From Candidatus Latescibacterota bacterium (lineage in GTDB: Bacteria > Latescibacterota > UBA2968 > GCA-2709665), in NCBI GenBank assembly GCA_965219995.1, contig CBDCOX010000002.1, positions 3,776,001-3,840,000 of the forward strand: a stretch of DNA of 64,000 bases, written 5' to 3'. Of this stretch, positions 20,985-52,216 are shown piece by piece (the stretch's first letter is position 1; every line of letters starts with the position of its first letter). Under the pieces are notes generated by a model. That model was not told the origin of the DNA, did no database searches, and saw only the letters and a list, made by a program, of their open reading frames with translations. The position numbers and the translations under genes are program-made.

Positions 20985-21009
20985 GGGCGCCCACAAGGGA
21001 CGCCCCTAC
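20985..21009 (-). repeat. GTAG-family REP (GTAGGGGCGTCCCTTGTGGGCGCCC)
   Basis: Exact reverse complement of the copy at 33396-33420. Confidence 0.85.
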
Positions 21010-30761: not shown

Positions 30762-33212
30762 ATGCAAACCCATGCGCGCCTGGTAGTCATCGGCGCCGGC
30801 ATCGTCGGCTGCAGCACCGTCTACCATCTCACACGCCAGGGCTGGAAGGACATTGTGGTCCTGGACCAGGGGCCGCTCTTCGATACGGGCGGGTCGACAT
30901 CCCATGCGCCGGGGCTGGTGTTCCAGACCAACTTTTCGAAAACGATGACCGACCTGTCCCGGAACACGGTTGCCCTTTACAATTCGCTGAGCCTGGACGG
31001 ACAACCCTGTTTCCATCCTGTCGGCAGCTTCGAAGTCGCGTACACGCCCGAGCGGATGGAAGACCTGAAGCGTAAACTGGGCGCCGCCAAGTCCTGGAAC
31101 CTTGAAGCCCGTCTCACTTCGCCCGAAGAGACCCGGGCAATGCTCCCCCTGCTGGACGCCGGCCGAATCCACGGCGCATACTATGTGCCATCGGACGGCG
31201 TTGCGAAGGCCGTTCGCGCCTGCGAAGCCATGGCGCGAGCGTCGGAAACCGGCGCCGCGTTTCACGGAAGAACCACGGTGACCGGCATCGAGTTGGTCAA
31301 CGGCCGCGTCCGCGGGATTGACACCGACCGGGGCCGCATCGCCGCGGACCAGGTTTTGATCTGCGCGGGTATCTGGGGGCCGCGCATCGGGCGCCTGGCG
31401 GGCATCTCCATTCCGCTCACGCCCGTACAGCATCAATACGCGCTCACGGCGCCGCTTCCGGAACTGGCGGGAGAATCCCGGGAGGTCGTCCACCCGATCC
31501 TGCGCCACCAGGATTTTGCCATGTACTTCCGGCAGCAGGCCGACCGGTACGGCATCGGATCCTACAGGCACGAGCCGCTCCTGGTGAGACCGGACGAACT
31601 CCTCAGCCCGGACGAAGCCAGGCTCTCGCCCTCGATCATGGACTTCACGCCGGAACACTTCGCGGTTGCGCGAGAGGCTGCGGACGAGCTTATCCCCGCG
31701 TTGAAGCACGCGGGTCTCGACTACAGGATCAACGGACTCTTCTCCTTCACGCCGGACGGGTTGCCCCTGCTCGGTGAGTCCGTCGACGTTCGCGGGCTCT
31801 GGGTTGCCGAAGCCGTATGGATCACCCACGGCGGCGGCGTGGGGCAGGCCGTGGCGCAATGGATGGACTCGGGTGCGCCGGAAGTCGATCTCCGGGACGC
31901 CGATTTCAACCGCTTCGGCCCGCATGTCCACACCCGAGAATACGTCGAAGCCCGGGGAGCGCAGCAGTACCGCGAAGTTTACGATATCATCCATCCGCTG
32001 GAACAGATGGACCATCCGCGAGACCTGCGTCTCAGCCCATTTCATCCACGTCTGAAAGCACTGGATGCCGTGTTCTTCGAAGGCGCGGGATGGGAACGCC
32101 CGCAGTGGTTCGAAGCCAACAACGCCCTGCCGGACAAAGAAGCAGGTCTGCCGTCGCGAACCGGGTGGGAGGCGCGTTACTGGTCTCCCGTTCAGGGCGT
32201 CGAACACCGGGCCGTCCGAAACCGCGCCGGGCTGTGCGATATCACCCCATTCACGAAGATCGAAGTCACCGGCGCCGGCGCCCTGGATTTCCTCCAGCGC
32301 ATCGCCGCCAACCGGATGGACCGCCCCGTCGGAGCGGTGATCTATACGGCACTGCTCAATTCACGGGGAGGCATCGCCGCCGACCTGACCGTCACCCGCC
32401 TGGCTCCCGACCGGTTCATGGTTCTCACCGGGGCCGCCGCGGGGATGCGGGACCTGGCATGGATTTCCCGCCACGCCCGGGATGTGGTCGCCGTTCAGAT
32501 TTCCGATGTGACCTCGGCCTGGTGCGGCCTGGGCCTGTGGGGCCCCGAAGCCCGAAGGATCCTTCAAGGCGTCTGCAGCGACGATCTGACCAACCGGGCG
32601 TTCCCGTATTTTTCCGCCAGGTGGATCCAAATCGGGTCCATTCCCGCCCTCGCGCTGCGCATTTCCTACGTGGGGGAACTGGGATGGGAAATCTACGCGC
32701 CCGCTGAATTCGGGCTTCTGCTCTGGGACACGCTATGGGAGGCCGGACGCCCGCACGGGCTCGTCGCCCTCGGTGGGGGCGCGTTCGACTCGCTTCGCCT
32801 TGAAAAGGGGTATCGCCTCTGGGGGGCGGATATCCATACGGAATACAACCCCTACGAGGCCGGGCTCGGCTGGGCAGTCAGGTTCGACAAGGGTGACTTC
32901 CTGGGACGGGACGCCTTGTTGAAAATCCGCGATGAGGGTATCAACCGGAAGCTCTGCTGCCTCACCCTGGACGAGCCGGGCGTGGTTGTGATGGGGAAGG
33001 AACCCATACTGGACGGCAGCCGCGTACTCGGGTACATCACCAGCGCCAACCACGGGTACACCGTCGGTAGATTTATCGCCTACGGCTACCTCCCGCTGGA
33101 GTACGCGAAGCCGGGAACATCGATCGAAATCGAAACCTTCGGCAATCGCCATCGCGCCACCGTCTCGCGCGAACCGCTTTACGATCCCCAGGGCGAAAAG
33201 ATGAAATGCTGA
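30762..33212 (+). CDS. Dimethylglycine dehydrogenase/oxidase (FAD-dependent, GcvT domain)
   Basis: GAGIVG, GGSTSHAPG, FTPDG, AVWITH, YVGELGWEIY and SLRLEKGY motifs. Confidence 0.9.
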   Translation: MQTHARLVVIGAGIVGCSTVYHLTRQGWKDIVVLDQGPLFDTGGSTSHAPGLVFQTNFSKTMTDLSRNTVALYNSLSLDGQPCFHPVGSFEVAYTPERMEDLKRKLGAAKSWNLEARLTSPEETRAMLPLLDAGRIHGAYYVPSDGVAKAVRACEAMARASETGAAFHGRTTVTGIELVNGRVRGIDTDRGRIAADQVLICAGIWGPRIGRLAGISIPLTPVQHQYALTAPLPELAGESREVVHPILRHQDFAMYFRQQADRYGIGSYRHEPLLVRPDELLSPDEARLSPSIMDFTPEHFAVAREAADELIPALKHAGLDYRINGLFSFTPDGLPLLGESVDVRGLWVAEAVWITHGGGVGQAVAQWMDSGAPEVDLRDADFNRFGPHVHTREYVEARGAQQYREVYDIIHPLEQMDHPRDLRLSPFHPRLKALDAVFFEGAGWERPQWFEANNALPDKEAGLPSRTGWEARYWSPVQGVEHRAVRNRAGLCDITPFTKIEVTGAGALDFLQRIAANRMDRPVGAVIYTALLNSRGGIAADLTVTRLAPDRFMVLTGAAAGMRDLAWISRHARDVVAVQISDVTSAWCGLGLWGPEARRILQGVCSDDLTNRAFPYFSARWIQIGSIPALALRISYVGELGWEIYAPAEFGLLLWDTLWEAGRPHGLVALGGGAFDSLRLEKGYRLWGADIHTEYNPYEAGLGWAVRFDKGDFLGRDALLKIRDEGINRKLCCLTLDEPGVVVMGKEPILDGSRVLGYITSANHGYTVGRFIAYGYLPLEYAKPGTSIEIETFGNRHRATVSREPLYDPQGEKMKC

Positions 33213-33222
33213 CGCACCGACC

Positions 33223-33420
33223 GGGCGACCACAAGGGTCGCCCCTACGCAGTATGGCGGATTCGATTGGGTTGAGGGTGGCCGACGAAGGGGTTATGATC
33301 CCCCGGTATGGGGCAAATCGCCCAACCAGCTTCTTTAGGTGTGTTCTGGTAAATTCAACGCAATGGCTGTTGCCATTCGCGGAAGTACCAAAGGTGTAGG
33401 GGCGTCCCTTGTGGGCGCCC
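33223..33420. repeat. Inverted pair of GTAG-family REPs (left island border)
   Basis: gggcgaccacaagggtcgcccctac (33223-33247) and gtaggggcgtcccttgtgggcgccc (33396-33420). Confidence 0.85.
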
Positions 33421-33530
33421 TTGCAGTTTGATATGGTCACGCAGTGAAATGCGTCACCAACAACAAGACAAAACCCCCGAGCTTATTGAATGGCCCGGGG
33501 GTCACGAGTGCTTTATCTGGAAGGTTCGTT

Positions 33531-34010
33531 CTATTCCTTTTCGCTACTCTCTCTTTTCAGCAATAAACAGCCGGCTATCAAGTCGTGAAGGGCCTGTTTT
33601 CGTTCCGTAAAGGCCGCAAGCAGATAACCAATGTACGCGGTCATTCTGGAGAGCATCTTTGCAAAATGACGTCCGGAAGCTCGTCCGAAGGTAATTCGGT
33701 TCCCCTCGAGATCCGTGACTTTTATGCCGAGCGCCAATTTGCCCAACGTGGCTTGAAGACTGGAAGATTCCATTATGGCAAAGTAAAGCCAATCGAAGGA
33801 GAAAAGGCAAACCAAGAACCCGATCACGACGGTTGTGAAAAATGCATCTCCTACGAGAAATGTACCAGCCGTACCCGTACCGAAGGCATAGAACCAACCA
33901 CCGAAAGCAGCATAGATTCCAGCAAATGCGCCGGTGATCAGTTTATCGATGATCGCTGCTGCAAAACGCTGCCAGAATCTCGCATAGGTCATTTTCGCCT
34001 CCTTTGACAT
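33531..34010 (-). CDS. RDD family membrane protein
   Basis: YARFWQRFAAAIID, ATLGK and QALHD motifs; lower GC. Confidence 0.9.
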   Translation of the reverse strand: MSKEAKMTYARFWQRFAAAIIDKLITGAFAGIYAAFGGWFYAFGTGTAGTFLVGDAFFTTVVIGFLVCLFSFDWLYFAIMESSSLQATLGKLALGIKVTDLEGNRITFGRASGRHFAKMLSRMTAYIGYLLAAFTERKQALHDLIAGCLLLKRESSEKE

Positions 34011-34160
34011 CTACTGCCACCTCAAACCACGATTGCCGTGAGATTAGACAGCGCTATTTGATTATTAGTTTCAGGAATAAAACGGTTCCGTCGACGACAT
34101 ACTCAAGAGCCGTTCCGGTACCAGGATCGTCCGCTTAAGTGAAATGCTTGTCTAAACCCC

Positions 34161-34195
34161 TTGACTCGACTGCGAATATAGTCTATATTGGACTA
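34161..34195 (+). promoter_or_regulatory. Toxin-antitoxin promoter with overlapping palindromic operator
   Basis: TTGACT-17 bp-TATATT; palindromes aatatagtctatatt and tagtc-tatattg-gacta. Confidence 0.7.
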
Positions 34196-34217
34196 TTAAC
34201 CAACGAAGGGAGACGAT

Positions 34218-34502
34218 ATGACCATCCAATATCCCAAACCAGACCGGGTCTGGACGGTTGCGGAGGCTAAGGCGAGGCTGTCTGAAATCCTTCGTCTGTC
34301 CGAGGCGGAAGGCCCGCAGCGAATCGGCGCGCGAAAGGCTTTCGTTGTCGTGCCCGAGCATGTCTGGGAGGCTCAGTCGTCACCGCGAAAGCCGCTTGGC
34401 CAGTGGCTGATCGACAATATGCCGCGCGGCACGAATCTGGATATTCCTGTCGGTCGAACGTCCCGGCGGGAGATCCCGTTCGCTGATGGAGGCGCGGGAT
34501 GA
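34218..34502 (+). CDS. Phd/YefM-family antitoxin
   Basis: WTVAEAKARLSEIL...GPQRI; ATGA overlap with the PIN gene. Confidence 0.85.
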   Translation: MTIQYPKPDRVWTVAEAKARLSEILRLSEAEGPQRIGARKAFVVVPEHVWEAQSSPRKPLGQWLIDNMPRGTNLDIPVGRTSRREIPFADGGAG

Positions 34503-34918
34503 ACGGGTTTCTCGTGGACACCAACGTGGTCTCTGAACTCACCAGGACCGCGCCGGACGCGAATGTGGTGTCATTTCTGTCTGAACCGCACGATTTGTGG
34601 CTGTCGGCGGTGGTGGTGCATGAGTTGGAGTTCGGTTTGCTGCTATTGCCTCACGGACGACGGCGCGACGTTCTGCGCGCGGCGCTGTCGGGGATCATCG
34701 CGGACTACCAGGACCGCATTCTTCCCGTCGACAGAGCGGGCGCGGAATGGGCGGCTCACTTTCGAACGCAGGCGCATCGCGCCGGACGGGTGCTGGATCT
34801 GGGCGACGCGCTCATCGCCGGAACCGCCAGGGCCCACGATCTGTCCGTTGCAACGAGAAACGTCACGGATTTCAACGGCCTGGACGTCGACGTCACGAAT
34901 CCATGGGAAACACCGTGA
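34499..34918 (+). CDS. vapC: VapC-family PIN-domain toxin
   Basis: LVDTNVVSE, DALIAGTA and TRNVTDF motifs. Confidence 0.9.
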   Translation: MNGFLVDTNVVSELTRTAPDANVVSFLSEPHDLWLSAVVVHELEFGLLLLPHGRRRDVLRAALSGIIADYQDRILPVDRAGAEWAAHFRTQAHRAGRVLDLGDALIAGTARAHDLSVATRNVTDFNGLDVDVTNPWETP

Positions 34919-34941
34919 CCGGGAAAGAAAGGGCGACCACA

Positions 34942-35046
34942 ATGGAACCCGACAAGCCGTCGTGGGAGGAAACATACCGCGCCATGGCTGCCGCCGGCGA
35001 AGACTGGGGCGAATTCGACACAACGGTCGCAGACGGTTTGGAGTGA
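34942..35046 (+). pseudogene. 34-aa fragment resembling the acidic C-terminus of an AbrB/MazE-type antitoxin
   Basis: MEPDKPSWEETYRAMAAAGEDWGEFDTTVADGLE; no DNA-binding N-terminus and no cognate toxin downstream. Confidence 0.5.
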
Positions 35047-35071
35047 AGTCCGGATTTCCCAGGCTAATTGG

Positions 35072-35285
35072 CATCCACATCAGTGACGATGCAGTCCGGA
35101 ATGGCGCGCATTCCCGGAAATGCAGGGCCAATGTGGATGGGTTGCTGCGTTTTCCGAACGGATGGATCATCCGAGAGGCGGAATAGGGCGTTGACGGTCA
35201 CTTATGTCCCACAACGCCATTTGTCGGCCAATAACGATAAAAAGTGGCCAACAAACTACGTTGTCGGCAATGGGTGACCGGCAAC
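35072..35285. repeat. Two consecutive long imperfect hairpins
   Basis: catccacat/atgtggatg (35072-35139); gttgacggtcac...tttgtcggcca / tggccaacaaa...gtgaccggcaac (35190-35285). Confidence 0.7.
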
Positions 35286-35450
35286 CGTCGATGTGCACGC
35301 GCGCCCCGGTAGGTGGCTGAACACAGACATTTGCGACGAGGGTTGCCATTTCAGCGAACGATGCTGACAGAAATAATGAACTGCAGTTGGGGGCCGTCGA
35401 CTCCTCTTTGAGAAGGAATATACTGAATTAGGTAGATACGGAGTACCCAT

Positions 35451-36443
35451 TTGAACGAAAAAACACAAAAACGACTGGCACAACTGAACGCTGATTGCGA
35501 AAGGATATACGGCTCACCTGTTCGTCACTTCTTTTGTCCGATTCTCTATCTGGACGACGTTACTAAACTATGCGAAGCCCATTTGATCAATAAGGCATTT
35601 CGAGACTCTGCCCGGACTTGGACAATACAACGAGCCGATGTGGACTCCTTCTACGGAACGCTTTTCGAAGCAGACTTCGTAGCGATGCAAGAGAAGGGTC
35701 GGCACCGACCAGACGAAGTAGTCGCCGACAAAGACCTATCACGAATGCTAAAGCCGAAGATCGTCGTAAACGGCGAGGAAGTAGGTTATTATTTTCCGAA
35801 AGGTGCTGTCCCACCAAACCATTCGCTGATAAGGTTATTCACGCCAATAGGAATTGTCGAACTGGCCTTGAAGCGATCACCCGCGGCAATGCAAAATGCC
35901 GAGACTGAATGCTGGACGATTCACATTGAAAAGAATCTCAACCTTCCAGCGCTTGTGTCGCTTATAAAGGCTGCGCATCTGACGCTGTATCATCTGTGCG
36001 GGTACCGCCATGTTTTTTCGGGTTGTGGGTTCTTTCTCGGCAGGACAGTGCTGGGTGAGTTTTTCTTGAAAGCCCGGCATTTGGATCGAAAACGCGCCTT
36101 GGAATTGGCCAAAAACCACTTCTCGTCGCTTGCGAACATGGTGCGACCAGTGTTGGTGAACCCGAGTCATCTGGAAGGGACTCTAACGGACCAGATGCTT
36201 TATGTGTGCGTTAACGGCGATTGTTTTTGGGCGTTGATAATATTCGTTAGAACAGGAGACCATTTAAACGCCGTAATGGTACCAACAATGGACAATCACG
36301 AATCGGTTGTCCTATTTGATAAATTCCTCATGAAACCAACAAACACTGTCTGTGTACGTCGTACTCGATGGAACGGGGATGCGTGGCAACTAAATCCTGA
36401 AACCGAAAAATTCTATTGGCCCGTGGCGGAATTCTGCCCGTGA
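35451..36443 (+). CDS. Hypothetical protein with degenerate HNH-like N-terminus
   Basis: 330-aa low-GC ORF; FFCPIL...EAHLINKAF...DVDSFYG pattern. Confidence 0.65.
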   Translation: MNEKTQKRLAQLNADCERIYGSPVRHFFCPILYLDDVTKLCEAHLINKAFRDSARTWTIQRADVDSFYGTLFEADFVAMQEKGRHRPDEVVADKDLSRMLKPKIVVNGEEVGYYFPKGAVPPNHSLIRLFTPIGIVELALKRSPAAMQNAETECWTIHIEKNLNLPALVSLIKAAHLTLYHLCGYRHVFSGCGFFLGRTVLGEFFLKARHLDRKRALELAKNHFSSLANMVRPVLVNPSHLEGTLTDQMLYVCVNGDCFWALIIFVRTGDHLNAVMVPTMDNHESVVLFDKFLMKPTNTVCVRRTRWNGDAWQLNPETEKFYWPVAEFCP

Positions 36444-36623
36444 TCTTGCTCGGCCGTACTTAAGTTGAAATCAACTGGTGCGGTTAAGAGAACCCGTGGA
36501 CTGGGGATTTGGGAATAGGGTCGGGATGCATTGGACGAGAAGGGCTCACGGAAGTTGCCCTCTAACTGCATCCCGCATTTGTGGCCGTTTCATCGGCCAA
36601 ATCACGCGCGAGAATATATCAAT

Positions 36624-39419
36624 ATGCGTCTATCGTGGAATGAAATCCGTGTCCGTGCTGCCCGATTTGCTGAGGAGTGGAAGGACTCGGGGTACGAAAA
36701 GGGTGAGACTCAGAGTTTCTACAACGAATTCTTCGAGATCTTCGGTGTGAAACGCCGTACGGTCGCGCGCTACGAGGAACTCGTCCAGCGCCTGGACGAC
36801 TCCAGTGGATTCATCGATCTCTTCTGGCCGGGCGTATTGCTTGTCGAGCAGAAGAGTGCGGGCGTCAACCTGAAGAAGGCGCGAGAACAAGCGGACACCT
36901 ATTTCGACGCGCTGCAGGAGCACGAGAGGCCGCGTTACCAGTTACAATGCGACTTTCAAACGTTTGATCTGATCGACCGGGATGAACGCGAGGAAGTGCG
37001 TTTCGGGCTCGCCAATCTTCCGGAACACGTTGAAAAATTCGGTTTTATCCTCGGTGTTCAGAAACGGACCTTTAAGGACCAGGACCCGGTCAACATCGCT
37101 GCGGCGGAACGCGTCGGCCTTCTCCACGACGCGCTGGCTGCATCCGGCTACACCGGGCACGACCTGGAGCAATTCCTCGTTCGCATTGTCTTCTGCTTCT
37201 TTGCGGACGACACCGGCATCTTCGAGCCGCGCGACATCTTTCTCGATTACCTGGAAAACCGTACGGGTGAAGACGGATCGGACCTTGGCAGCCGCCTCAT
37301 GCACTTGTTCCAGGTTCTCAACACCCACGAAGAACAGCGCCCAACCACACTCGATGAAGACCTCGACCGCTTCCCGTACGTCAACGGCGAGCTTTTTCGA
37401 GACACATTGCCCATCCCGTCATTTGATTCCGAGATGCGCGAGAAGCTTATCAACGCTTGCAATTTCAATTGGTCGAACATCTCACCGGCGATTTTCGGCT
37501 CGTTGTTCCAGTCGGTAATGGACAAGGACCAGCGACGCCGACAGGGTGCGCACTACACGACTGAACAGAACATCCTCAAGGTCATTGAGCCTCTGTTCCT
37601 CGACGAATTACGTGACGAATTGCGCCACCTGAAATCACGCCGTGACATCCACCGCATTCCCGCGTTGCACACGTTCCGGCAGCGACTCCGCGACCTGCGC
37701 ATTCTCGACCCTGCATGCGGTTGCGGAAACTTCCTTATCATAGCGTATCGCGAATTGCGCGAATTGGAAATCGAAGTACTCAGAGAGATTCATCCAAAAC
37801 TACAGACCGATGCCTTTGCAAAGCAGCTCTCCATAGTGAATGTGGATCAGTTCTACGGCATCGAGTTGGGGGAATTTCCGGCCCGCATCGCCGAAGTAGC
37901 GCTGTGGATGATGGACCACATAATGAACAACTGGTTAAGCAAGGAGTTTGGAAGGATCTTCACACGAATTCCATTGAATACATCGCCTCACATCCGGCAG
38001 GGCGACGCGCTCGAGTTCGATTGGTCCGAACTACTGCCTCCAGAGGAATGTTCCTACGTGCTCGGCAATCCACCGTTCATTGGCTCAAAATTCCAGTCGG
38101 ACGACCAGCGCGATCAGGTGCGCCATATCGCCGCGCTTGGAAAGAGCGGCGGCTCATTGGACTATGTTGGCGCGTGGTTTATCAAGGCTGGGGAGTACGT
38201 GCAGAATAGCGAAGCACGAATCGGTTTTGTGGCGACGAATTCCATCACACAGGGCGAACAGGTTGCGCAACTCTGGCCAATTTTGTTCGAGCGGTACAGA
38301 CTGGACATCACATACGCCCATCGTACGTTTGCATGGGGATCGGACGCTCGCGGCATGGCGCACGTTCATGTCGTAATCATCGGATTGGCCAAAACCGACC
38401 TCGCGCCGCGGCAGAAACGTCTGTTTTCGTACGAAACGGTTAACGACGACCCACAGCAGACCCAACACGCAGCACTCTCACCCTACCTTTTCGACGCGGG
38501 AAGTTTGGCCAATCCGCGAGTTGTGGTAAGGGAGTCACATCTACCTTTCAATGGGCTGCCGAAGCTGATCATTGGCTCCAAGCCGATCGATGGTGGGCAT
38601 TATATCTTTAAGGCTGACGAACGTGCCGCTTTCCTCCGCGATGAACCGGGCGCCGAGCCGTACCTGCGCCCTTTCGTCGGCAGTCGCGAGTTTCTCCAGG
38701 GTGGAATGCGCTGGATACTTCATCTCGCCGAAGTGTCTCCTCAGGTACTCAAGTCACTCCCGAGAGTCAGGGAACGCATAGCCGCCGTTCGCGACTATCG
38801 GTTAGCGAGCAGGAGTGCGCCTACCCGTACGCTTGCAATGACACCAAAGCTCTACCACGTCAACGTCATTCCAGCGGCCCCTTTCATGGTGGTGCCGGAG
38901 GTCAGCTCCGAACGGCGCGACTACATTCCGATTGCATGGCTGGAACCTCCCGTGATTCCGAGCAACAAGATACGTGTGCTGCTAAATGCCTCCCTTTGGC
39001 AATTCGGATTATTAACCTCGACATTGCACATGGCGTGGGTCAGGAATATCGGCGGACGGCTCAAGAGTGACTTTTCCTACGGAATAGGCATCGTGTACAA
39101 TACGTTTCCGATGCCCCCCGTACCGCCAGAACGCCTGAAACGGCTTGCAACCCACGCCGACGCCGTTCTATCCGCTCGCGCGAATCATCCTGACGCGACG
39201 CTTGCCGACCTGTACGACCCCGACATGATGCCTCCCGACCTTCGCAAGGCACACCAGGCGCTGGACCGCACCGTCGACAGGCTATACCGACGTAGCGGCT
39301 TTACGTCGGAGCGCGAGCGTGTGGAACACCTGCTGGGACTGTACGAGAAAATGGTCGCGCCGCTTGCGGCAAAGGCGAAACCGAAGCGGCGGCGGCGGCG
39401 AACTGCAGCCGGGCGATAG
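36624..39419 (+). CDS. MmeI-like Type IIL/IIG restriction-modification enzyme (N6-adenine MTase fused to endonuclease)
   Basis: Start MRLSWNEIR; IDLFWPGVLLVEQKS nuclease motif; GAHYT, ILDPACGCGNFL and GNPPF; C-terminal TLADLYDP. Confidence 0.92.
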   Translation: MRLSWNEIRVRAARFAEEWKDSGYEKGETQSFYNEFFEIFGVKRRTVARYEELVQRLDDSSGFIDLFWPGVLLVEQKSAGVNLKKAREQADTYFDALQEHERPRYQLQCDFQTFDLIDRDEREEVRFGLANLPEHVEKFGFILGVQKRTFKDQDPVNIAAAERVGLLHDALAASGYTGHDLEQFLVRIVFCFFADDTGIFEPRDIFLDYLENRTGEDGSDLGSRLMHLFQVLNTHEEQRPTTLDEDLDRFPYVNGELFRDTLPIPSFDSEMREKLINACNFNWSNISPAIFGSLFQSVMDKDQRRRQGAHYTTEQNILKVIEPLFLDELRDELRHLKSRRDIHRIPALHTFRQRLRDLRILDPACGCGNFLIIAYRELRELEIEVLREIHPKLQTDAFAKQLSIVNVDQFYGIELGEFPARIAEVALWMMDHIMNNWLSKEFGRIFTRIPLNTSPHIRQGDALEFDWSELLPPEECSYVLGNPPFIGSKFQSDDQRDQVRHIAALGKSGGSLDYVGAWFIKAGEYVQNSEARIGFVATNSITQGEQVAQLWPILFERYRLDITYAHRTFAWGSDARGMAHVHVVIIGLAKTDLAPRQKRLFSYETVNDDPQQTQHAALSPYLFDAGSLANPRVVVRESHLPFNGLPKLIIGSKPIDGGHYIFKADERAAFLRDEPGAEPYLRPFVGSREFLQGGMRWILHLAEVSPQVLKSLPRVRERIAAVRDYRLASRSAPTRTLAMTPKLYHVNVIPAAPFMVVPEVSSERRDYIPIAWLEPPVIPSNKIRVLLNASLWQFGLLTSTLHMAWVRNIGGRLKSDFSYGIGIVYNTFPMPPVPPERLKRLATHADAVLSARANHPDATLADLYDPDMMPPDLRKAHQALDRTVDRLYRRSGFTSERERVEHLLGLYEKMVAPLAAKAKPKRRRRRTAAGR

Positions 39420-39457
39420 GGTGGATACCCGATCGCGAGAAGATTTACCGACGAGCC

Positions 39458-39486
39458 TTGACCAGCGCCAAAACTGTGGCTACAAT
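39458..39486 (+). promoter_or_regulatory. Sigma70 promoter of the GHKL-dcm-vsr operon
   Basis: TTGACC-17 bp-TACAAT. Confidence 0.7.
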
Positions 39487-39659
39487 AATGGTACTTTTGG
39501 GATTTGAAGACCTGAATAGGACGCCTCTATATTTCGCAGGCTAAGATTCTCGGGGCAATGCCAGTTTTCGCGATAAATTCTCGATAATTTCACCCGAAAG
39601 AATTAAGAGTCGCTGCCGACGGTAACGAGACCCTTGTTTGCTATAAGTGGGATTTTTCC

Positions 39660-41651: not shown

Positions 41652-42736
41652 ATGCAAAAGCACCAATTGCGATTGATCTATTTGCTGGATGTGGCGGGTT
41701 GACAAAGGGTATCCGCGATGCGGGATTCAACGTCGCGGCAGCCGTTGAAATAGACTCAGACGCGGCGCAAACCTACAAGCGGAACCACCCACGAACACAA
41801 TTACTGACAAACGACATTCGGGACGTGTCCGGTTCGGATCTCGTGGAAGCCGCCGGTAGCGACCAGGTTTCGCTTCTGGCGGGTTGCGCGCCCTGTCAGG
41901 GATTCTGTTCGCTTACGAGCAAGTACCAGGAATCCGACCCGCGAAATGAGCTTCTACTCGCGATGGCCGACGTCGTCGAAGCGATTCTTCCACGTGCGGT
42001 GTTTATGGAAAACGTCCCTGGCGTCTTAAATCGGGGCAAGGCAATATTCAATCAGTTCCTTGGCGTTATGGCCGATCTTGGATACAAGTACAGTTGGCGG
42101 GTTGAACAGATCGCAGATTATGGAGTACCGCAATCCCGACGGCGACTGGTCCTCGTAGCAGGACTTGGATTCGAAATCCCCTTACCGGAACCCACTCATG
42201 CTCGTGTCCCGGAGGATGGATCCGGTCTGCAGCCGTGGAGAACGGTAGAGCAAGCGATCGGCCATATGGGAGCGCCTATCACGTTAAAGGCCGCACGCAG
42301 AAATGGTGGACCTCAATCTCATAACTGGCACGTAGTTAGAAATCTTCAACCTCAGGTCAAGAAAAGACTAGAAGCGGCGGAACCAGGGAAAACATGGTTG
42401 GCAATAGATGAATCGGTACGTCCGAAATGTCACCGAAGCGACTATCGGGGTTTCACTAATACGTATGGAAGGATGGCGTGGGACCAGGTCTCTCCCACCA
42501 TAACCGGTGGGTGTACCACGGCATCCAAAGGCCGTTTCGGCCATCCTGATAAATCCAGATACACGATCTCCGTTCGAGAAGCAGCGCTGCTTCAGACGTT
42601 TCCCGAAAATTACAGATTCACCACGGATAGCATGGAGAGAGTTTGTGATCTTATTGGCAATGCGGTTCCGCCTTTATATGCGAAATTAGCTGCGCAGAAG
42701 GTCAATTCCGCGCTTCGGGAATTACCGGAAAATTAA
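41648..42736 (+). CDS. dcm: DNA (cytosine-5)-methyltransferase
   Basis: [33 protein letters not shown] and GNAVPP motifs; GTGA overlap with the upstream gene. Confidence 0.95.
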
Positions 42737-42750
42737 CATGGTGCGAGACC

Positions 42751-43197
42751 ATGAGTCGTTGGCCCGGTGACCCACGAAAAGAACGTACGACGTTTGGCGG
42801 TTTGCGTCGTGGTGAACTGATGACCCGAGTGCGTAGCAAGGGTAATAAAACGACCGAAGAACGCCTTGCACGTCTCTTACGGGAGTGGCGATTAACCGGC
42901 TGGAGACGAAACCAACCGCTTCCGGGGCGACCGGATTTCGCGTTTTTGAAGGAGAAGGTCGCAGTCTTTGTGGATGGGTGTTTCTGGCATGGGCACAATT
43001 GTAGAAACTTGACGTCAAAGACAAATCCGAAGGCATGGCACGACAAAATTTCACGTACCCAGGCAAGGGACCGGCGTGCAAACCGTCTCCTTCGCCAGTT
43101 GGGATGGAAAGTCATGCGCATTTGGGAGTGTCGTCTGGCAAAAGCCCCGGACGTCTGTATGCGACGAATAAAACGCAAACTCAAAGAGAATAGATGA
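42751..43197 (+). CDS. vsr: Very short patch repair endonuclease
   Basis: GRPDF, VFVDGCFWHGH and GWKVMRIWEC motifs. Confidence 0.95.
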   Translation: MSRWPGDPRKERTTFGGLRRGELMTRVRSKGNKTTEERLARLLREWRLTGWRRNQPLPGRPDFAFLKEKVAVFVDGCFWHGHNCRNLTSKTNPKAWHDKISRTQARDRRANRLLRQLGWKVMRIWECRLAKAPDVCMRRIKRKLKENR

Positions 43198-43296
43198 ACC
43201 ACGCAGCAGGTCTGTAGACCCCCCCAGATAAGTGATTCGGCAATTCCGACGCAAAGAAGTCCAACCGATTTGTATCTACCTCTATTGACACATACA

Positions 43297-44436
43297 ATGA
43301 GAGTCAGCATTCGAGACAAGCGGTGCCTAAATGAGATTTCGCCTGCGGCGCTGTCGGCATATGCCCGTGCAGCTGGCTGGAGACGGACAGGCGACTATGG
43401 CGACTCTTCAGACGTTTACGCGTCGGACGGCTTACCGGAGATCATACTGCCGCGGACCCAACGATTGGGTGATTATGCAATCGTCGTATCGCGACTCATT
43501 GAAATCTTCGCCGACGTGGCAGGTACCGACGAACTTTCTCTCTACCACGACCTGGTTTCCTTCGATCGAGACGTCATTCGCGTTGGGGCCGACGAAGGCG
43601 GCGATGGCGTCGCGTCAGCAAGCGATCGGATCGACCTTGCGCGCGCTGCACGCGATATGGTCCTGGCAGCGGCCTGTTCGCTCAATGATCCGCAGTCGGT
43701 CTATCGCGCTGCTGCGGACAATGAGTCCCGGAACCTTGTCCGCAAATTGCGAATGGGGCAAACCGAGCAAGATAGCTTTGTTGTTACCCTGCTGACCCCC
43801 GTCTTTTCGCCACCCCTACAACAATCCTTCATTCAGCACTCGGAGCACAACGAAGACCCGATTGAGCGCAGGATGACAAAGCGTCTTGTTTCCGCGCTGC
43901 GAGCCGCCCGGCATGCGACGGATGGAATTGTCGGCGGAAAAGTTGACGCTTTCCTGCACGCCGTAGACGATGGTGTAAGCGCCAATCTGTGCGAAGCGCT
44001 CATAAGGTTGATCGAACCCTTCGAAACACTGGACGTCAGTCTGACCTGGGCCGGCACCCGTCCGACGAATACGGCACGGGAGCTCGTTCACTTTGCCAAA
44101 TCAGATGTACCTATCCTCCGTGAGGCCGCAAGTCTGTTCCGTAATCGCGGACCCAAACCGGACGTGCTGCTATTCGGTTTTGTGCAGAGGCGCAAGGGGC
44201 GACCGGAGTCTGCGGATGCAACAATCACCTTACGAGCTTACGTTGACGGGCAAATTCAGTCAGTTGAAGCCGCACTGAACCAGTCCGATTACGAGCAAGC
44301 CATCAGGGCGCGTAAACACAATGCGTCGGTGATTCTCGCAGGCGATCTTGTGCGTAACGGCAAACGGCGGCGCTTGCTGAATCCACGCATCGTTGCCGTT
44401 ATTCCGCAAGGCAACACGCAGGAAGAGGGAGAATGA
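43297..44436 (+). CDS. Hypothetical protein (defence-island associated)
   Basis: Start MRVSIRD; 379 aa with natural composition; no catalytic motif recognised. Confidence 0.7.
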   Translation: MRVSIRDKRCLNEISPAALSAYARAAGWRRTGDYGDSSDVYASDGLPEIILPRTQRLGDYAIVVSRLIEIFADVAGTDELSLYHDLVSFDRDVIRVGADEGGDGVASASDRIDLARAARDMVLAAACSLNDPQSVYRAAADNESRNLVRKLRMGQTEQDSFVVTLLTPVFSPPLQQSFIQHSEHNEDPIERRMTKRLVSALRAARHATDGIVGGKVDAFLHAVDDGVSANLCEALIRLIEPFETLDVSLTWAGTRPTNTARELVHFAKSDVPILREAASLFRNRGPKPDVLLFGFVQRRKGRPESADATITLRAYVDGQIQSVEAALNQSDYEQAIRARKHNASVILAGDLVRNGKRRRLLNPRIVAVIPQGNTQEEGE

Positions 44437-44521
44437 GGATGATCGATCACATCCACTCCATGGCATTTTCGATACAGGCAAATCCTGGCGTGTATAGAAC
44501 AAACCGTGTCGGAGCCTGACG

Positions 44522-45400
44522 ATGAGTGAGCCACTGGGATTCTCGGTAAGAATCTTCGTGCCTTCCGGCGAGCCGGAAGGCCTACGTGTCGTCGAGAAAT
44601 CGAATTGGACCGGGCAGGGTTTCGTTTTTCCCAGATCGCATTTTAGCACGGTTCGCGACAAGGAATTACTCAATCATACTGGCGTGTACGTTCTCTGGGA
44701 ACCTGGCGAATTTGGGCAACTACCACTGGCTTACATTGGTGAGGCAGATGTGTTGTCACGAAGACTGGAGCATCACGCCAAAAACAAGGATTTCTGGACC
44801 AACGTCATTGCGTTCCTCAGCAAGGACCACAGCTTGAATAAAGCGCACGCGAAGTACCTTGAAGCGCGGCTGGTAGACCTCGCAGATCAGGCAAAACGCT
44901 GCGAACTGACGAATGGCAACGTCCCGAGAACGCCATCGCTTTCGCCTGCGGATAAAGTGGATGCGGAGCTGTATTTGGCGGATATGTTACTATGTCTTCC
45001 TGTTGTGGGCGTAAACTTCTTCGATAAGCCGCGACGGGAGGCGGGAACGAGTCGAGACTTTTTGCTGAACGCGAAGGGTATATTGGCACGCGGTTACGAA
45101 GCGGCAAGCGGTTTTGTCGTACGTGCTGATTCGCAAGCAGTCAAGGAACAGGTTGCATCAATCTCGTCGTCCATATCAGACCTGCGTAACATACTTTGTC
45201 GAAAGAAGATTCTCGAAGATGCAGGCGCCAATTACAGGGTCGTTCAAGACTATCCTTTCAGTTCACCGTCTAAGGCGGCCAGCGTCCTCTTGGGAGCCCC
45301 GATGAATGGCCTCACTGCCTGGAAGGACGCCGATGGAAGAACATTAAAGGAAATTCGGGACGTAGAAGTAGGTAATGCGGGTGAATCCGTTGCCGAGTAA
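44522..45400 (+). CDS. GIY-YIG nuclease family protein with C-terminal DUF4357
   Basis: GVYVL...AYIGEA, KDFW, YLEARL; FSSPSKAA...NGLTAWK. Confidence 0.85.
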   Translation: MSEPLGFSVRIFVPSGEPEGLRVVEKSNWTGQGFVFPRSHFSTVRDKELLNHTGVYVLWEPGEFGQLPLAYIGEADVLSRRLEHHAKNKDFWTNVIAFLSKDHSLNKAHAKYLEARLVDLADQAKRCELTNGNVPRTPSLSPADKVDAELYLADMLLCLPVVGVNFFDKPRREAGTSRDFLLNAKGILARGYEAASGFVVRADSQAVKEQVASISSSISDLRNILCRKKILEDAGANYRVVQDYPFSSPSKAASVLLGAPMNGLTAWKDADGRTLKEIRDVEVGNAGESVAE

Positions 45401-45488
45401 ACCGATCGGCGTAAATTGACAGTCGCCGCGAAATTGCGCAGTCTTTGTTCGAGAATCATCAGGGCTCCAACGAGCTATCGAGATTCGA

Positions 45489-45938
45489 ATGGCAGACCTC
45501 GACCTCACTCAAGCAGAAGCAGACGCGTTGATTGAAATGGAAAAACACCGGGTAAATGATGACCAGGCAAGTTTCCCGATGGGTGGCGAGTCCGTTGTTA
45601 TCCCACTTCAGTCGGTCGAAAGGCGAGAGCAGTTCCTGCTCGACTTGAGTCGCGCGAGCATCAATCTTTCAAAAGTCAAAATGCAGACTCGCGGGCGGCA
45701 AGTCGTCGTGCTGGTTCGTCTCGATCTGGGTGGTGCGCCACATCGAAATCCGGATGGCGAAGAAATACCCGTACCGCACGTCCACGTTTACCGCGAAGGC
45801 TACGGCGACAAGTGGGCGGTAGTTGTACCCACGGACGGGTTCCTTGCTGTCGGTGATGCCTGGATGATGTACGAACAGTTTCTGCAGTTCTGCAACGTCA
45901 CGCGACCGCCGAATGTCGTAAGGGAGCTTTTTACATGA
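45489..45938 (+). CDS. DUF6978-like hypothetical protein
   Basis: [14 protein letters not shown]; [16 protein letters not shown]...[14 protein letters not shown]; ATGA-coupled to the next gene. Confidence 0.75.
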
Positions 45939-46699
45939 TTCGAGAAATTCAGATCCTCATTGATGATTATTATGCTTGGCTCAAGGACAAGACAATCCTG
46001 AACCAAATCGACCAGTGGGTCGAGATTACCACGCCTTATTTGGATAGACACAACGACTACCTACAGATCTATGCGAGAGATGCGAATGGAGGCTTTGTGT
46101 TAACGGATGACGGATATACAATTGAGGATCTTGCCCAAAATGGTTGCAATCTCGAAAGTCCCAAACGGCAAGATCTGCTGCAAATGACGCTCAACGGTTT
46201 TGGAGTCCATAGAGACGGACGTGAGTTACAGGTCCTTGCATCAGCCGACAACTTTGCAATCCAAAAACACAATCTCTTACAGGCGATGCTGGCCGTCAAC
46301 GATATGTTCTATATGGCGGCACCCACGGTGGCGAACATCTTTTATGAAGATGTGGAAGCTTGGCTTGATCTCTGCGATATTCGCCACACGCCAAAGGTGA
46401 AGTTTACAGGTCAAACGGGGTATGATCATCTCTTTGATTTCGTGATTCCGAAATCTCGGGAGCGGCCGGAGCGGCTCATACAGACAGTCAACCGCCCAAG
46501 TCGTTCAACCGCTCAGAACGTTGTACTTGCTTGGATTGACACAAAGGAAGTCCGCACGCCGGGGTCACGTGTGTACGCATTTCTGAACGATTCGGAAAGA
46601 AAGGTCGATCAGACAGTGATGGCCGCACTACGGAGCTACGACGTCAGACCAGTGGTTTGGAGTCAGCGTGAAGACGCGAGAATGGAATTGGCGGCTTGA
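45935..46699 (+). CDS. DUF1828/DUF1829 domain protein
   Basis: [39 protein letters not shown] and AFLND motifs. Confidence 0.85.
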
Positions 46700-46784
46700 A
46701 CATCGACGCGTTATTTTCGTCGTCGGTGCTATCGACTCATTTCCATCTGCTCCATCACCCTCCGACCAAAAAAACACTACCATT

Positions 46785-46824
46785 TACTCAATGTATTGAG
46801 TATAATTACTCATTATGTTGAGTA
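46785..46824 (+). promoter_or_regulatory. Tandem palindromic operators flanking a TATAAT box
   Basis: TACTCAATGTATTGAGTA (46785-46802), TATAAT (46801-46806), TACTCATTATGTTGAGTA (46807-46824, contains the ATG). Confidence 0.7.
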
Positions 46825-48023
46825 AATTGTCATATACGCGTCCGCACGCGGAGGATCTGCTGCTGCGGTTGCGTGAGCCGCGGCGTTTTGTTCAGGTCGT
46901 CGCCGGGCCGAGGCAGGTGGGGAAGACGACCCTGATCACGCATGTCGCGGAGAGGTCCGGGCTGCCGTATCGCTACGCCAGCGCCGACGAACCCACGTTA
47001 CGCGGACCGGAATGGATTGCGCAACAGTGGGACGCGGCGCGGCTTATTCTTGACGATGCAGGGGAGGATGGCGCGCTTCTCATCCTGGACGAAATCCAGA
47101 AAGCGCCAAACTGGTCGGAGGTGGTCAAACGACTTTGGGACGAGGATACGCTGAGCCAGCGACGGCTCAAGGTTGTGCTGTCGGGTTCGGCGCAGCTCCT
47201 GATCGGACGAGGCCTTACGGAGAGCCTTGCCGGGCGTTTCGAGCTTCTGCACGTTCCGCATTGGAGCCTGCTCGAAATGCGGACCGCTTTCGGCTGGTCT
47301 CCGGAACAGTTCTTGTTCTACGGCGCCTATCCCGGCGCGGCGCCGCTGGTGCAGGAGCAGGCCCGTTGGTCCCGGTACATCAGGGACTCACTCATCGAAA
47401 CAACCATTTCGCGAGACGTCCTGCTGCTTTCACGCGTGGACAAACCGGCCTTGTTGCGCCGGATGTTCGAATTGGGATGCGCGTATTCCGGCCAGATCCT
47501 TTCCTATTCGAAAATGCTGGGCCAACTGCACGACGCCGGAAACACCACGACGCTGGCGCACTATCTCGATCTGCTGGCAGCCGCGGGAATGCTCCGGGGA
47601 ATACAGAAGTACGCCGGAGCGGCGGTTCGGCGCCGGAGTTCCAGCCCTAAGTTGCAGGTCTACAACACGGCCCTGATGACAGCGGGATCGGGCCTAACAC
47701 TTGCGCAGGCGCGCGCCGATCACGAATTCTGGGGGCGGCTGGTCGAGTCAGCGGTAGGGGCTCACCTGGTGAATGCCGCTGCCGGCGGCGCGTGCGAGGT
47801 CTTCTACTGGCGCGACCGTCACAACGAGGTGGATTTCGTTGTGCGGTCCGGACGAACGATCACGGCCATTGAAGTCAAGAGCGGGCGAACCGGCCGGAAC
47901 CCCGCGGGAATGGCCGCCTTCGCCGAGGCCTTCCAACCGACCCGCAGACTGCTCGTCGGAGGCGACGGCATTGCCCTCGATGAGTTCCTCTCGAAATCGG
48001 TAGAGCTTTGGGTACATGAATGA
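46815..48023 (+). CDS. AAA_14 ATPase with DUF4143 (PD-(D/E)XK-like) C-terminus
   Basis: GPRQVGKTT, LILDEIQ, SGS, ESLAGR; EVDFVV...IEVKSG. Confidence 0.92.
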   Translation: MLSKLSYTRPHAEDLLLRLREPRRFVQVVAGPRQVGKTTLITHVAERSGLPYRYASADEPTLRGPEWIAQQWDAARLILDDAGEDGALLILDEIQKAPNWSEVVKRLWDEDTLSQRRLKVVLSGSAQLLIGRGLTESLAGRFELLHVPHWSLLEMRTAFGWSPEQFLFYGAYPGAAPLVQEQARWSRYIRDSLIETTISRDVLLLSRVDKPALLRRMFELGCAYSGQILSYSKMLGQLHDAGNTTTLAHYLDLLAAAGMLRGIQKYAGAAVRRRSSSPKLQVYNTALMTAGSGLTLAQARADHEFWGRLVESAVGAHLVNAAAGGACEVFYWRDRHNEVDFVVRSGRTITAIEVKSGRTGRNPAGMAAFAEAFQPTRRLLVGGDGIALDEFLSKSVELWVHE

Positions 48024-48047
48024 AGGCCCTGGTCGTGCAAAAAATCA

Positions 48048-48343
48048 GGGCAACCACAAGGGTTGCCCCTACGCAGGACGTGGAACGGGATTCTGACGGA
48101 CGTGCGTTGACGATCGTTGCATTGCAATTGTAAAATTCGTTACAACGCTCAACCCTATCTGAGGCATAATTTCAAGTGTAGGGGCGCCCCTTGTGGGTGC
48201 CCGGCCATTCGGTGACAGGTAAGCGGTCGACACATCAACCTGGGCAACAACAAGGGTTGCCCATACGCGCTGTACGGGATATGATATTTCCAACCAGGTG
48301 AATCGAACCATCGGAATTGTAGGGGCGCCCCTTGTGGGTGCCC
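48048..48343. repeat. Cluster of four GTAG-family REPs in alternating orientation (right island border)
   Basis: Copies at 48048-48072 (-), 48178-48202 (+), 48242-48266 (-, degenerate) and 48319-48343 (+). Confidence 0.88.
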
Positions 48344-48383
48344 GCACATATCACGTTAACCACAGAAATACGGGAGAATTCCA

Positions 48384-49373
48384 ATGCCCGAGTCGATACT
48401 GAAACAACTGGAAGGCGGCGTGGTGCTGGGCGACGGGGGGTACCTGCTCGCGTTGGAGAATCGGGGCTACGTCCAGGCCGGTCCGTTCACGCCGGAAGTG
48501 ACCATCGAGAACCCGAACGCGCTGCTTGCGTTGCACGAGGAATTCGTGCACGCCGGGGCGGAGGTCCTGCAGGTGCTCACCTTTTACGCCAGCGAAAACA
48601 AGCTGGCGCAGGTCGGCTATGCCGGCAGACTGGAAGAGATCAATCGCGCGGCCGTCAGAATCGCTCGCGAGGCCGCCGGCGACAGGGCGCTCGTCGCCGG
48701 GAATATCTGCCTCACGTGGAAGTACCCCGCATCGGAGGACGAATGCCGGCGCCTGTTCGACGCCCAGCTCGGTTACCAGATGGCCGAAGGCGTGGACTTC
48801 ATCATCGGCGAGACGTTTCTCCACGCGGGCGAGGCCCTGATCGCCCTCGAGCGTGTGAAAAGCACCGGCCTTCCCGCCATGATTACGCTGGCGTTCGAAG
48901 GTCCGGAAACCCGCGACGGAAAGTCCCCGGGCGAGGCCGCTAAGATGCTGGAAGGCGCGGGCGCCGACGTGGTGGGCGCCAATTGCTGGCAGGACCCCAC
49001 CTTCATGTTCCCCGCCATCGAGCAGATGCGCGAAGCGGTGAATTGCCATGTGGCCGCCCAGCCGGTCGCCTACCGGTGCACGCCGGAGGTACCCTTCTTC
49101 ACCGGTCAGCCAGGCTTTCCGGACAGGCTGGACGACTACAAGATCAGCCGCTATGAGATGGGCGACTTCGCTAAAGACGCCCTGGACCTGGGGGTGAACT
49201 ATATCGGCGGCTGTTGCGGATGCGAGGGATCGCACATCCGCCAGATGGCGCGCGCCATCGGCAAAATGCCCGCCGAAGAGCGCGAATGGGACGCGGATTA
49301 CCAGAAACCCCAGTCGGCGACCGAAGCGTACAGAGAAATCCGGGAGCAATCCGGCGCTGCTCCCGGAGCATGA
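48384..49373 (+). CDS. Homocysteine S-methyltransferase family protein, betaine-homocysteine methyltransferase (BHMT)-like
   Basis: GDGGYLLALENRGYVQAGPFTPE resembles the BHMT N-terminal motif; GANC and GGCCG zinc ligands. Confidence 0.88.
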   Translation: MPESILKQLEGGVVLGDGGYLLALENRGYVQAGPFTPEVTIENPNALLALHEEFVHAGAEVLQVLTFYASENKLAQVGYAGRLEEINRAAVRIAREAAGDRALVAGNICLTWKYPASEDECRRLFDAQLGYQMAEGVDFIIGETFLHAGEALIALERVKSTGLPAMITLAFEGPETRDGKSPGEAAKMLEGAGADVVGANCWQDPTFMFPAIEQMREAVNCHVAAQPVAYRCTPEVPFFTGQPGFPDRLDDYKISRYEMGDFAKDALDLGVNYIGGCCGCEGSHIRQMARAIGKMPAEEREWDADYQKPQSATEAYREIREQSGAAPGA

Positions 49374-49412
49374 TCTGGTCGCGATTGCAGATCCATGCGC
49401 GTGACATCGAGA

Positions 49413-52177: not shown

Positions 52178-52216
52178 ACGAATCCTCGCAACGGTACGAA
52201 CCCATGCGACGGGCTG

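Follow-up and report, generated by a model that had tools for sequence, protein, structure and literature searches.

A chromosomal defence hotspot splits a two-gene metabolic operon in an uncultured Latescibacterota genus

The core defence hotspots cDHS1 and cDHS2 of Pseudomonas aeruginosa and the Escherichia coli defence hotspots that lack mobile genetic elements are the closest known kind of locus to the one described here. In the P. aeruginosa paper, transfer by homologous recombination via the conserved flanks was proposed, and how integrase-less defence hotspots arise was stated to be an open question. Here, we characterized an island of ~15 kb (positions 33213–48383) in a 64,000-nucleotide stretch of Candidatus Latescibacterota DNA (hereafter the window; G000:C2:3776001-3840000, G- and L-numbers being codes for genomes and loci), where it separates a dimethylglycine/sarcosine-dehydrogenase-family gene from a homocysteine S-methyltransferase-family gene. 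The window's own genome, G000, is 5.44 Mb in two contigs and 98.6% complete. Its genus is uncultured, and the named relatives are metagenome-assembled genomes labelled Candidatus Latescibacterota or, in some cases, Gemmatimonadota; the comparisons below cover 15 genus genomes including G000. Unlike cDHS1 and cDHS2, this locus belongs to an uncultured phylum and splits a metabolic operon. The cDHS1 region contains a proline tRNA, whereas the Latescibacterota locus has none. It also shows a conserved gene order together with clusters of repetitive extragenic palindromes (REPs) and a locus-specific palindromic direct repeat at its junctions, and junction repeats do not appear in the accessible cDHS passages. 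New in this locus are its phylum, a split operon whose intact form survives in outgroups, the conserved order of its cassettes and the two kinds of repeat at its junctions.

We read the island as a long-lived chromosomal defence hotspot that is remodelled by recombination at its conserved flanks and internal repeats, and not as a discrete mobile element; that the locus is a hotspot is strongly supported, and the reading as a whole is, in our judgement, probably correct. The hotspot would have opened inside an ancestral operon of a dehydrogenase-family gene followed by a methyltransferase-family gene, and the cassettes of a co-oriented array would then have been lost, gained and swapped singly. 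Homologous recombination with relatives' DNA and unequal crossing-over inside the locus would account for these changes, anchored on the flanking genes, on the REP clusters at the borders and, in relatives, between genes, and on direct copies of a ~100-bp imperfect palindrome (hereafter the linker) that bracket single cassettes. The REPs probably accumulate at the locus and act as passive homology or as fragile hairpin sites, and those in G000 would be acted on by no REP-associated tyrosine transposase (RAYT).

Both flanking genes were found on one contig in 10 of the 15 genus genomes, and they were split in all ten. The same two conserved genes thus flank a variable region in 10/10 genomes, the region holds diverse defence systems that differ between genomes, and, as far as the window's island ORFs and the scanned subsets of relatives' open reading frames show, its cargo is explained by no single mobile-element type or hallmark gene. 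In fact, the cassette mix differs in every one of the ten. The gap between the flanking genes is short in G011 (4.8 kb), G009 (5.4 kb), G007 (5.4 kb) and G014 (5.8 kb), and long in G000 (15.2 kb), G001 (15.7 kb), G008 (16.4 kb), G004 (17.2 kb), G010 (18.6 kb) and G013 (22.7 kb). Note that, in the remaining five genus genomes, the flanking genes were on different contigs or were fragments, or an orthologue was not found. In 4 of 18 loci outside the genus, the two genes are direct, co-oriented neighbours with the dehydrogenase-family gene upstream, at gaps of 85 bp in L027 (from genome G018), ~30 bp in L028, 47 bp in L030 and ~30 bp in L045, where the methyltransferase gene is a fragment only. 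A fifth locus, L029, has the reversed gene order and a 530-bp gap; contig ends interrupt several of the remaining 13. An earlier reading made from the letters of the window alone (the sequence-only reading) had proposed that the two metabolic genes were once adjacent and that the REP cluster is a hotspot through which defence cassettes accumulate. Comparison across related assemblies bears out the former adjacency and a hotspot in the spacer, since the pair is adjacent outside the genus (gaps of ~30–85 bp) and is split inside it by 4.8–22.7 kb of varied cargo.

The left-flank gene (30762–33212, + strand, 816 aa) carries the domains DAO, FAO_M, GCV_T and GCV_T_C, an architecture of an FAD oxidase joined to a folate-binding aminomethyltransferase; no equivalog model scored above its cut-off, and dimethylglycine as the substrate is putative. 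The right-flank gene (48384–49373, + strand, 329 aa) belongs to the PF02574 superfamily. The sequence-only reading, whose end and start points for the two genes (33212 and 48384) are the same as in our open reading frame (ORF) calls, had labelled the latter gene betaine-homocysteine methyltransferase (BHMT)-like. This label went beyond what the matches carry and is unproven: the NCBIfam BHMT model NF005718 gave 86.6 bits against a cut-off of 338, and the best NCBIfam match, to the N-terminal half of a bifunctional homocysteine S-methyltransferase/methylenetetrahydrofolate reductase, was also below cut-off. G000 holds at least seven matches (E ≤ 1e-40) to the right-flank protein. The idea that a BHMT feeds the dehydrogenase depends on this unproven label, although a functional link between the dehydrogenase- and methyltransferase-family genes is supported by the recurrence of their adjacency. 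Within the genus, orthologues of the left-flank dehydrogenase are 84–92% identical and those of the right-flank methyltransferase 90–95%.

The island has a GC content of ~0.52 against ~0.62 around it. It had been described from the sequence as visibly AT-rich, which holds for 33–47 kb (0.476–0.588 per kb, with flanks at ~0.60–0.66) and not for the last kilobase (47–48 kb, the PDC-S01 gene), where the GC content is 0.628. Twelve of the 13 island genes are on the + strand, and 11 match defence or toxin-antitoxin (TA) families, the exceptions being an RDD-family protein and an uncharacterised 330-aa protein; the description of the cargo as almost all of these kinds holds. The same applies to the reported lack of an integrase, transposase or tRNA, as the island ORFs scanned contained neither an integrase nor a transposase domain and the whole window had no tRNA. 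An Rfam search of the whole window returned no family at gathering score, and a megablast search with the island gave no match in 72,556 plasmid and 50,697 phage records.

To follow the cassettes through the genus, 22 cassette proteins were compared by tblastn with 11 genus loci. The Phd/PIN TA module was present in all 11, the MmeI-family gene in 7, the RDD gene, HEC-01, PDC-M24B and PDC-S01 in 6 each, and PDC-M02B in 5. SoFic, the GHKL-Dcm-Vsr set, the SIR2 protein (PDC-S65) and PDC-M24A were found at four loci each, PDC-S14, PDC-M02A and PDC-S11 at two each, and the 330-aa gene, a Schlafen/AlbA protein and an HNH protein at one each. Compared with the window, relatives' loci further hold the PDC-S65 SIR2, PDC-S11, Schlafen/AlbA, HNH and PDC-M02A genes. 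Despite these differences in content, the order is conserved: RDD, Phd/PIN, a variable slot, MmeI, type II restriction-modification (R-M) or other cassettes, PDC-M02, PDC-S65/PDC-S14, PDC-M24 and PDC-S01.

Sequence identity along the island is uneven. With the 7-kb right flank as the baseline (90.9% to G010 and 90.6% to G001), the identity to G010 was 90.5% for RDD-TA, 78.2% for MmeI, 70.8% for PDC-M02B and 95.5% for PDC-M24–PDC-S01, and the identity to G001 was 88.6% for TA, 87.3% for MmeI, 84.1% for GHKL-Dcm-Vsr and 93.0% for PDC-M24B–PDC-S01; HEC-01 was 76% identical between G001 and G010. Given cassette identities of 71–95.5% against a flank of 91%, the island is a mosaic, and the discordance within one genome pair indicates allele replacement, not loss alone.

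This mosaic bears directly on the alternative that a single insertion at the base of the genus brought in a large island, from which genes have since only been deleted, with the REPs and palindromes as passengers in loosely constrained spacers. The conserved cassette order, the universal Phd/PIN module and the many segments near flank divergence, such as RDD-TA (90.5% vs 90.9%), all suit such a history. However, it does not lead one to expect that one genome pair combines segments far below the baseline (PDC-M02B, MmeI and HEC-01) with others above it (95.5%), that some cassettes are restricted to a single genome (the 330-aa, Schlafen and HNH genes, each 1/11), or that a slot framed by the same linkers holds different cassettes in G001 and G010. 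We consider erosion alone unlikely.

The linker occupies 35190–35290 (+ strand) in the window, where it is single-copy in G000. It is built of five alternating 9-mers, GNCCNACAA / TTGTNGGNC, around an AT-rich centre, and as single-stranded DNA it is predicted to form a single long hairpin (−24.7 kcal/mol, z −3.6 vs shuffles). A sequence model built from 18 copies detected it in 13 of the 14 other genus genomes (none in G014), with 1–4 copies each, co-oriented with the cassettes and all at the focal locus apart from two partial ones in G012. SoFic lies between direct copies in all four of its genomes (G010, G013, G009 and G002), and HEC-01 does so in four of six (G001, G010, G004 and G007, with G008 and G013 as the exceptions). 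In 4/7 genomes a copy stands ahead of MmeI, and the window's lone copy precedes the 330-aa gene. The copies group by host lineage, not by adjacent cassette, and positional homologues are scrambled: copy G001a is 93% identical to G010c and 81% to G010a. The HEC-01 allele of G001 seems to occupy the place between linkers that SoFic has in G010. Away from the focal locus, the copies in G015, G012 and G034 all occur amid other defence genes, namely Mrr, DUF4357, SIR2, BamHI R-M, HepT, Fic_N and AAA_15/21. Metagenome contigs were scanned with a pattern of 17 fixed bases, which gave 60 hits, many of them probably chance, and none on viral contigs; 18 metagenome loci, several of them near-duplicates, carry a near full-length relative of the linker (23–39 bits, model R1). 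Since the linker occurs near defence genes in several genomes and metagenomes, it is tied to defence genes across lineages. SoFic, the single-gene Fic system, is among the closest known systems: relatives' loci match PADLOC SoFic at 360 bits, and related palindromes lie by Fic_N+Fic genes in six metagenome loci. Unlike the SoFic-bearing relatives, the window has no SoFic gene, and its solo palindrome is upstream of the unrelated 330-aa gene. We found no paper, in open-access text, that links a SoFic-associated palindrome to defence hotspots.

Between the TA pair and the linker (34944–35180), a short segment is conserved; it contains a 33-codon ORF and a long imperfect hairpin with a T-run behind it, a hairpin that was read by eye and that the promoter scan did not call as a terminator. 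This segment recurs, sometimes twice, elsewhere in relatives' loci. In addition, the heptamer TTGTGGG/CCCACAA is common to the loop-and-stem of a left-border REP, CCCTTGTGGG (33396–33420), and the linker half-sites TTGTNGGNC (35209–35268), and it is also held by the half-site TTGTGGGAC of the metagenome relatives; the sharing may be due to chance or to a common binding protein.

Integron cassettes can encode defence systems, and the linker invites comparison with integron arrays and with clusters of attC sites lacking integron-integrases (CALINs). In an integron-like system, the linker would be a site-specific recombination site, and circular cassettes with one copy each would insert at a copy already present, producing site-cassette-site arrangements, by means of a recombinase that is encoded elsewhere (e.g., Xer) or has been lost. 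Several features fit this: cassettes are co-oriented and separated by ~100-bp imperfect palindromes whose within-genome copies are highly similar, direct copies bracket SoFic (4/4) and HEC-01 (4/6), the linker has paired boxes around unpaired spacers, a geometry like that of attC, the off-locus copies in G015, G012 and G034 are all in other defence clusters, and an ORF-then-palindrome arrangement beside Fic genes recurs in other organisms. Nevertheless, no integron integrase (IntI) was detected in G000, where the best score on the model TIGR02249 (92 bits) fell short of the cut-off of 265 and the model showed only two tyrosine-recombinase-like loci. The AAC/GTT core triplets that define attC do not appear conserved: the linker's own conserved cores are CACAA / TTGT, with a G ahead of TTG in no more than 10/18 copies. 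Loci carry only 1–4 sites, and cassettes are larger than those of integrons (1.2–1.9 kb, and up to 3–4 kb without sites). Furthermore, the linker copies evolve with the host lineage, and neither circles nor empty sites were seen among the contigs, nor any copy on viral contigs. An integron-like origin is, on this evidence, quite unlikely.

The second junction repeat is the REP, a 25-nt GTAG-headed hairpin with the family consensus GTAGGGGCNNCCCTTGTGGNNGCCC, whose stem variants AA/TT, GA/TC and GT/GC co-vary so that pairing is kept. The large contig (5.43 Mb) holds 57 copies at ≤3 mismatches and the 9.6-kb contig none. Seven lie in the window, and six of these are in the island's two border spacers, with one inverted pair on the left (33223–33247, −; 33396–33420, +; GTAG ends pointing inwards) and two pairs on the right (48048–48072, −; 48178–48202, +; 48242–48266, −, degenerate; 48319–48343, +). 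The first core begins at 33223, 11 bp past the dehydrogenase ORF, and the last reaches 48343, which leaves 40 bp to the ORF at 48384–49373, exactly where the sequence-only reading had placed them. Uniform placement would put 0.007 REPs in the 678 bp of these two spacers, so that flanking by six exceeds chance; the worry that REPs might be so frequent genome-wide as to flank the island by accident is answered by 57 copies in 5.43 Mb and their concentration at the locus. Two of the four multi-copy clusters among 51 are the island borders. REP clusters adjoining low-GC DNA were 12/51 against roughly 7 expected from a 7% background, a mild enrichment. The seventh window REP (20985–21009) lies downstream of hisG (19765–20625), at the edge of a mildly low-GC stretch (17–23 kb, 0.57–0.59).

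Inside the island, the half-site gggcgaccacaa (34931–34942), immediately behind the stop codon of the PIN gene, is what is left of a REP that breaks off in its loop. It had been noticed in the sequence at about this position, and it is a genuine truncated REP, because five relatives (G009, G004, G014, G008 and G013) carry a complete REP there; the window and G010 share an identical truncation. The truncation coincides with a conserved breakpoint, as nucleotide similarity to the G011, G009, G004, G014 and G008 loci stops at 34945–34947. The short-gap genomes G011, G009 and G014 have 12–16 REPs (≤3 mismatches) at the locus, mostly as clusters in intergenic spacers, and the G007 locus has only 5. 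Genome-wide, the genus genomes hold 19–139 REPs at ≤1 mismatch. In contigs assembled from four public runs, recurrent joints from 33420 to 48047 were considered as an empty site and rejected; as their sides are only 24–26 nt long with 18–37 foreign letters between, they are REP pairs from elsewhere. No paper linking REPs to defence hotspots was found in open-access text.

These repeats resemble described REP, bacterial interspersed mosaic element (BIME) and REPIN-RAYT systems in being 25-nt GTAG-headed hairpins, often in inverted pairs, that are restricted to spacers and number from tens to ~140 copies per genome. In the model that goes back to the sequence-only reading, a RAYT (TnpA-REP), an HUH nuclease acting on the REP clusters, would mobilise or capture the defence cassettes in trans. 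The repeats are indeed true GTAG-type REPs with compensatory variants, they flank the island far beyond chance, relatives' clusters lie mostly between genes of the locus, and some Y1_Tnp match exists in 8/15 genus genomes. However, PF01797 had no match in G000, although the same search was positive in six control genomes including E. coli, and it was also absent from the REP-rich G004 (139 REPs), G011 (98), G009 (84) and G014 (73). Y1 presence is unrelated to REP load across the genus, with 7/15 genomes lacking a match. Among the relatives' Y1 loci, one was looked at in detail, that of G001, where a RAYT-like gene (L014:1201–1806, 201 aa, HxH motif) has no GTAG REP (≤4 mismatches) within the surrounding 3.2 kb and is flanked instead by four copies of another hairpin repeat. 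Specifically, these copies (L014:900–3222) form a ~230-bp composite repeat that contains the hairpin CGAGGGCAGGGATGCCCTCG and is a second REP/REPIN family of the genus; only two copies of it occur in G000, which lacks the RAYT-like gene. The local clusters also differ from REPIN-RAYT systems in being concentrated at one hotspot and in including a REP truncated in the loop at a rearrangement junction. A RAYT cuts at the GTAG end, not in the loop, and the sole visibly broken REP (34931–34942) is broken in the loop. To our knowledge, RAYTs do not move multi-kb cargo. Mobilisation by a RAYT is thus highly improbable.

Several points weigh against our reading of the locus as a hotspot remodelled by recombination at flanks and repeats. 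Much of the pattern also fits vertical descent with differential loss, given the conserved order and a cassette divergence that is often near baseline, and fast evolution of R-M genes could lower identity without exchange. The linker copies are only ~70–93% identical over ~100 bp, a borderline case for RecA to recombine efficiently. Moreover, a linker relative lies 0–120 bp downstream of a SoFic-type Fic_N+Fic gene in six metagenome loci of other organisms (five of them close relatives of one another), so that the main function of the linker may be that of a regulatory element or terminator tied to a gene, and not that of a recombination anchor. The promoter scan found no sigma-70-like promoter in the linker, only a TTGACG at its 5′ end without a matching −10 box, and sigma-70 rules may not be those of this phylum. 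The scans of relatives' ORFs for mobility genes covered subsets of 30 and 40. Lastly, a recombination event was never seen directly: the contigs of the four public runs contained no credible empty-site or excision joint over 31000–50500, and, these being contigs and not raw reads, nothing follows as to absence.

Within the island of the window, the RDD-family membrane protein (33531–34010, − strand, 159 aa; PF06271, E 2e-24), found at the locus in 6/11 genus genomes, is followed by the Phd/YefM-like antitoxin (34218–34502) and the PIN/VapC toxin (34499–34918), both on the + strand and together the sole module present in 11/11 genus loci. All further genes are on the + strand. Beyond the linker and the 330-aa gene (35451–36443), the MmeI-family type IIG R-M enzyme (36624–39419, ATG at 36624) matches PADLOC REase_MTase_IIG at 1160 bits, and PF20464, PF20465, PF20473, PF20466 and PF20467 all exceed their cut-offs in one chain (nuclease, helicase-spacer, methyltransferase, target recognition domain (TRD), C-terminal part). 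Relative to its G004 orthologue (L005), this gene aligned on both sides (81.6% and 83.3%) of an unaligned stretch of ~570 bp in the TRD region (window 38527–39093), which looks like a specificity-domain swap in the alignment. In its methyltransferase part (36859–38160), contig depth was up several-fold in all four runs, and unitigs of the best-holding run break at 37211–37235 and 47322–47349; the breaks and the raised depth indicate stretches common to other genomes of those communities.

Downstream of MmeI lies a type II R-M system with a repair nickase (39660–43197; at 4/11 genus loci), which consists of a BbrUII/HgiDII-family GHKL restriction enzyme (39660–41651), a C5 cytosine methylase (41648–42736) and Vsr (42751–43197). 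The candidate defence proteins PDC-M02B (43270–44436; PADLOC 363 bits) and PDC-S14 (DUF4357; 44522–45400) come next, then PDC-M24A (DUF6978; 45489–45938), PDC-M24B (DUF1828/DUF1829; 45935–46699) and the AAA_14 + DUF4143 ATPase PDC-S01 (46815–48023; PADLOC 578 bits). The distance from Vsr to PDC-M02B is 72 bp (region 43198–44436). PDC-M02B occurs in the window without PDC-M02A, which is found only at the G010 and G013 loci; as both of these have A and B, the window's PDC-M02B may be an incomplete system.

Ordinary metabolic genes surround the island: one side has those for peroxiredoxin, a HAD hydrolase, PhyH and sulfatase together with his genes, and the other encodes a HetI-like phosphopantetheinyl transferase domain. 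This domain is in a 930-aa ORF (49413–52205, −) of which only the last ~250 residues match the HetI-type transferase, the N-terminal ~680 being without a family match; the call may be too long, or the protein a fusion. Note that stop-to-stop frames cover 97.7% of bases with some long frame in this high-GC genome and are uninformative as an estimate of intergenic DNA.

The 330-aa protein, a cassette of this genome only among the 11, is a candidate defence gene because it occupies the hotspot's variable slot. It had no Pfam, PADLOC or NCBIfam match, and its family is widespread: at least 201 homologues were found at E ≤ 0.001, none of them with a name other than "hypothetical". Residues C29, P30, D35, C41, H44, N47, Q60, R61, D63, D65 and E73, in the N-terminal third, are invariant in the family. 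An AlphaFold2 (AF2) model was of high confidence (predicted local distance difference test (pLDDT) 91.3, predicted TM-score (pTM) 0.90). Against the PDB, Foldseek found no match at E ≤ 0.001, and the best VIA-wide match had a Z of 4.5. The beta-beta-alpha-Me nucleases Cap5, Hpy99I, McrA and IscB matched the model at Z 3.0–3.3 only; together with the invariant residues, these weak matches are a hint, and only a lead, that the protein might be a nuclease.

A further proposal is tentative, and we think it rather unlikely to hold. The linker could be the recombination site of an undescribed integrase-less cassette-exchange platform, through which SoFic, HEC-01 and the 330-aa gene would move by means of an Xer-like recombinase or RecA, relatives of the site travelling with SoFic-type Fic genes in other phyla. 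If true, such a platform would provide a concrete mechanism by which core defence hotspots that lack the hallmarks of mobile elements are built.

Three features make the construction of a defence hotspot testable here: sister lineages still have the intact two-gene operon, which is the empty ancestral state; the eleven genus loci show cassette-by-cassette turnover; and two classes of short repeats lie at the junctions, one of which brackets single cassettes as direct repeats. The locus also removes the attractive explanation by a RAYT, and it yields the 330-aa family, conserved, well folded by prediction and of no known fold, as a candidate defence gene.

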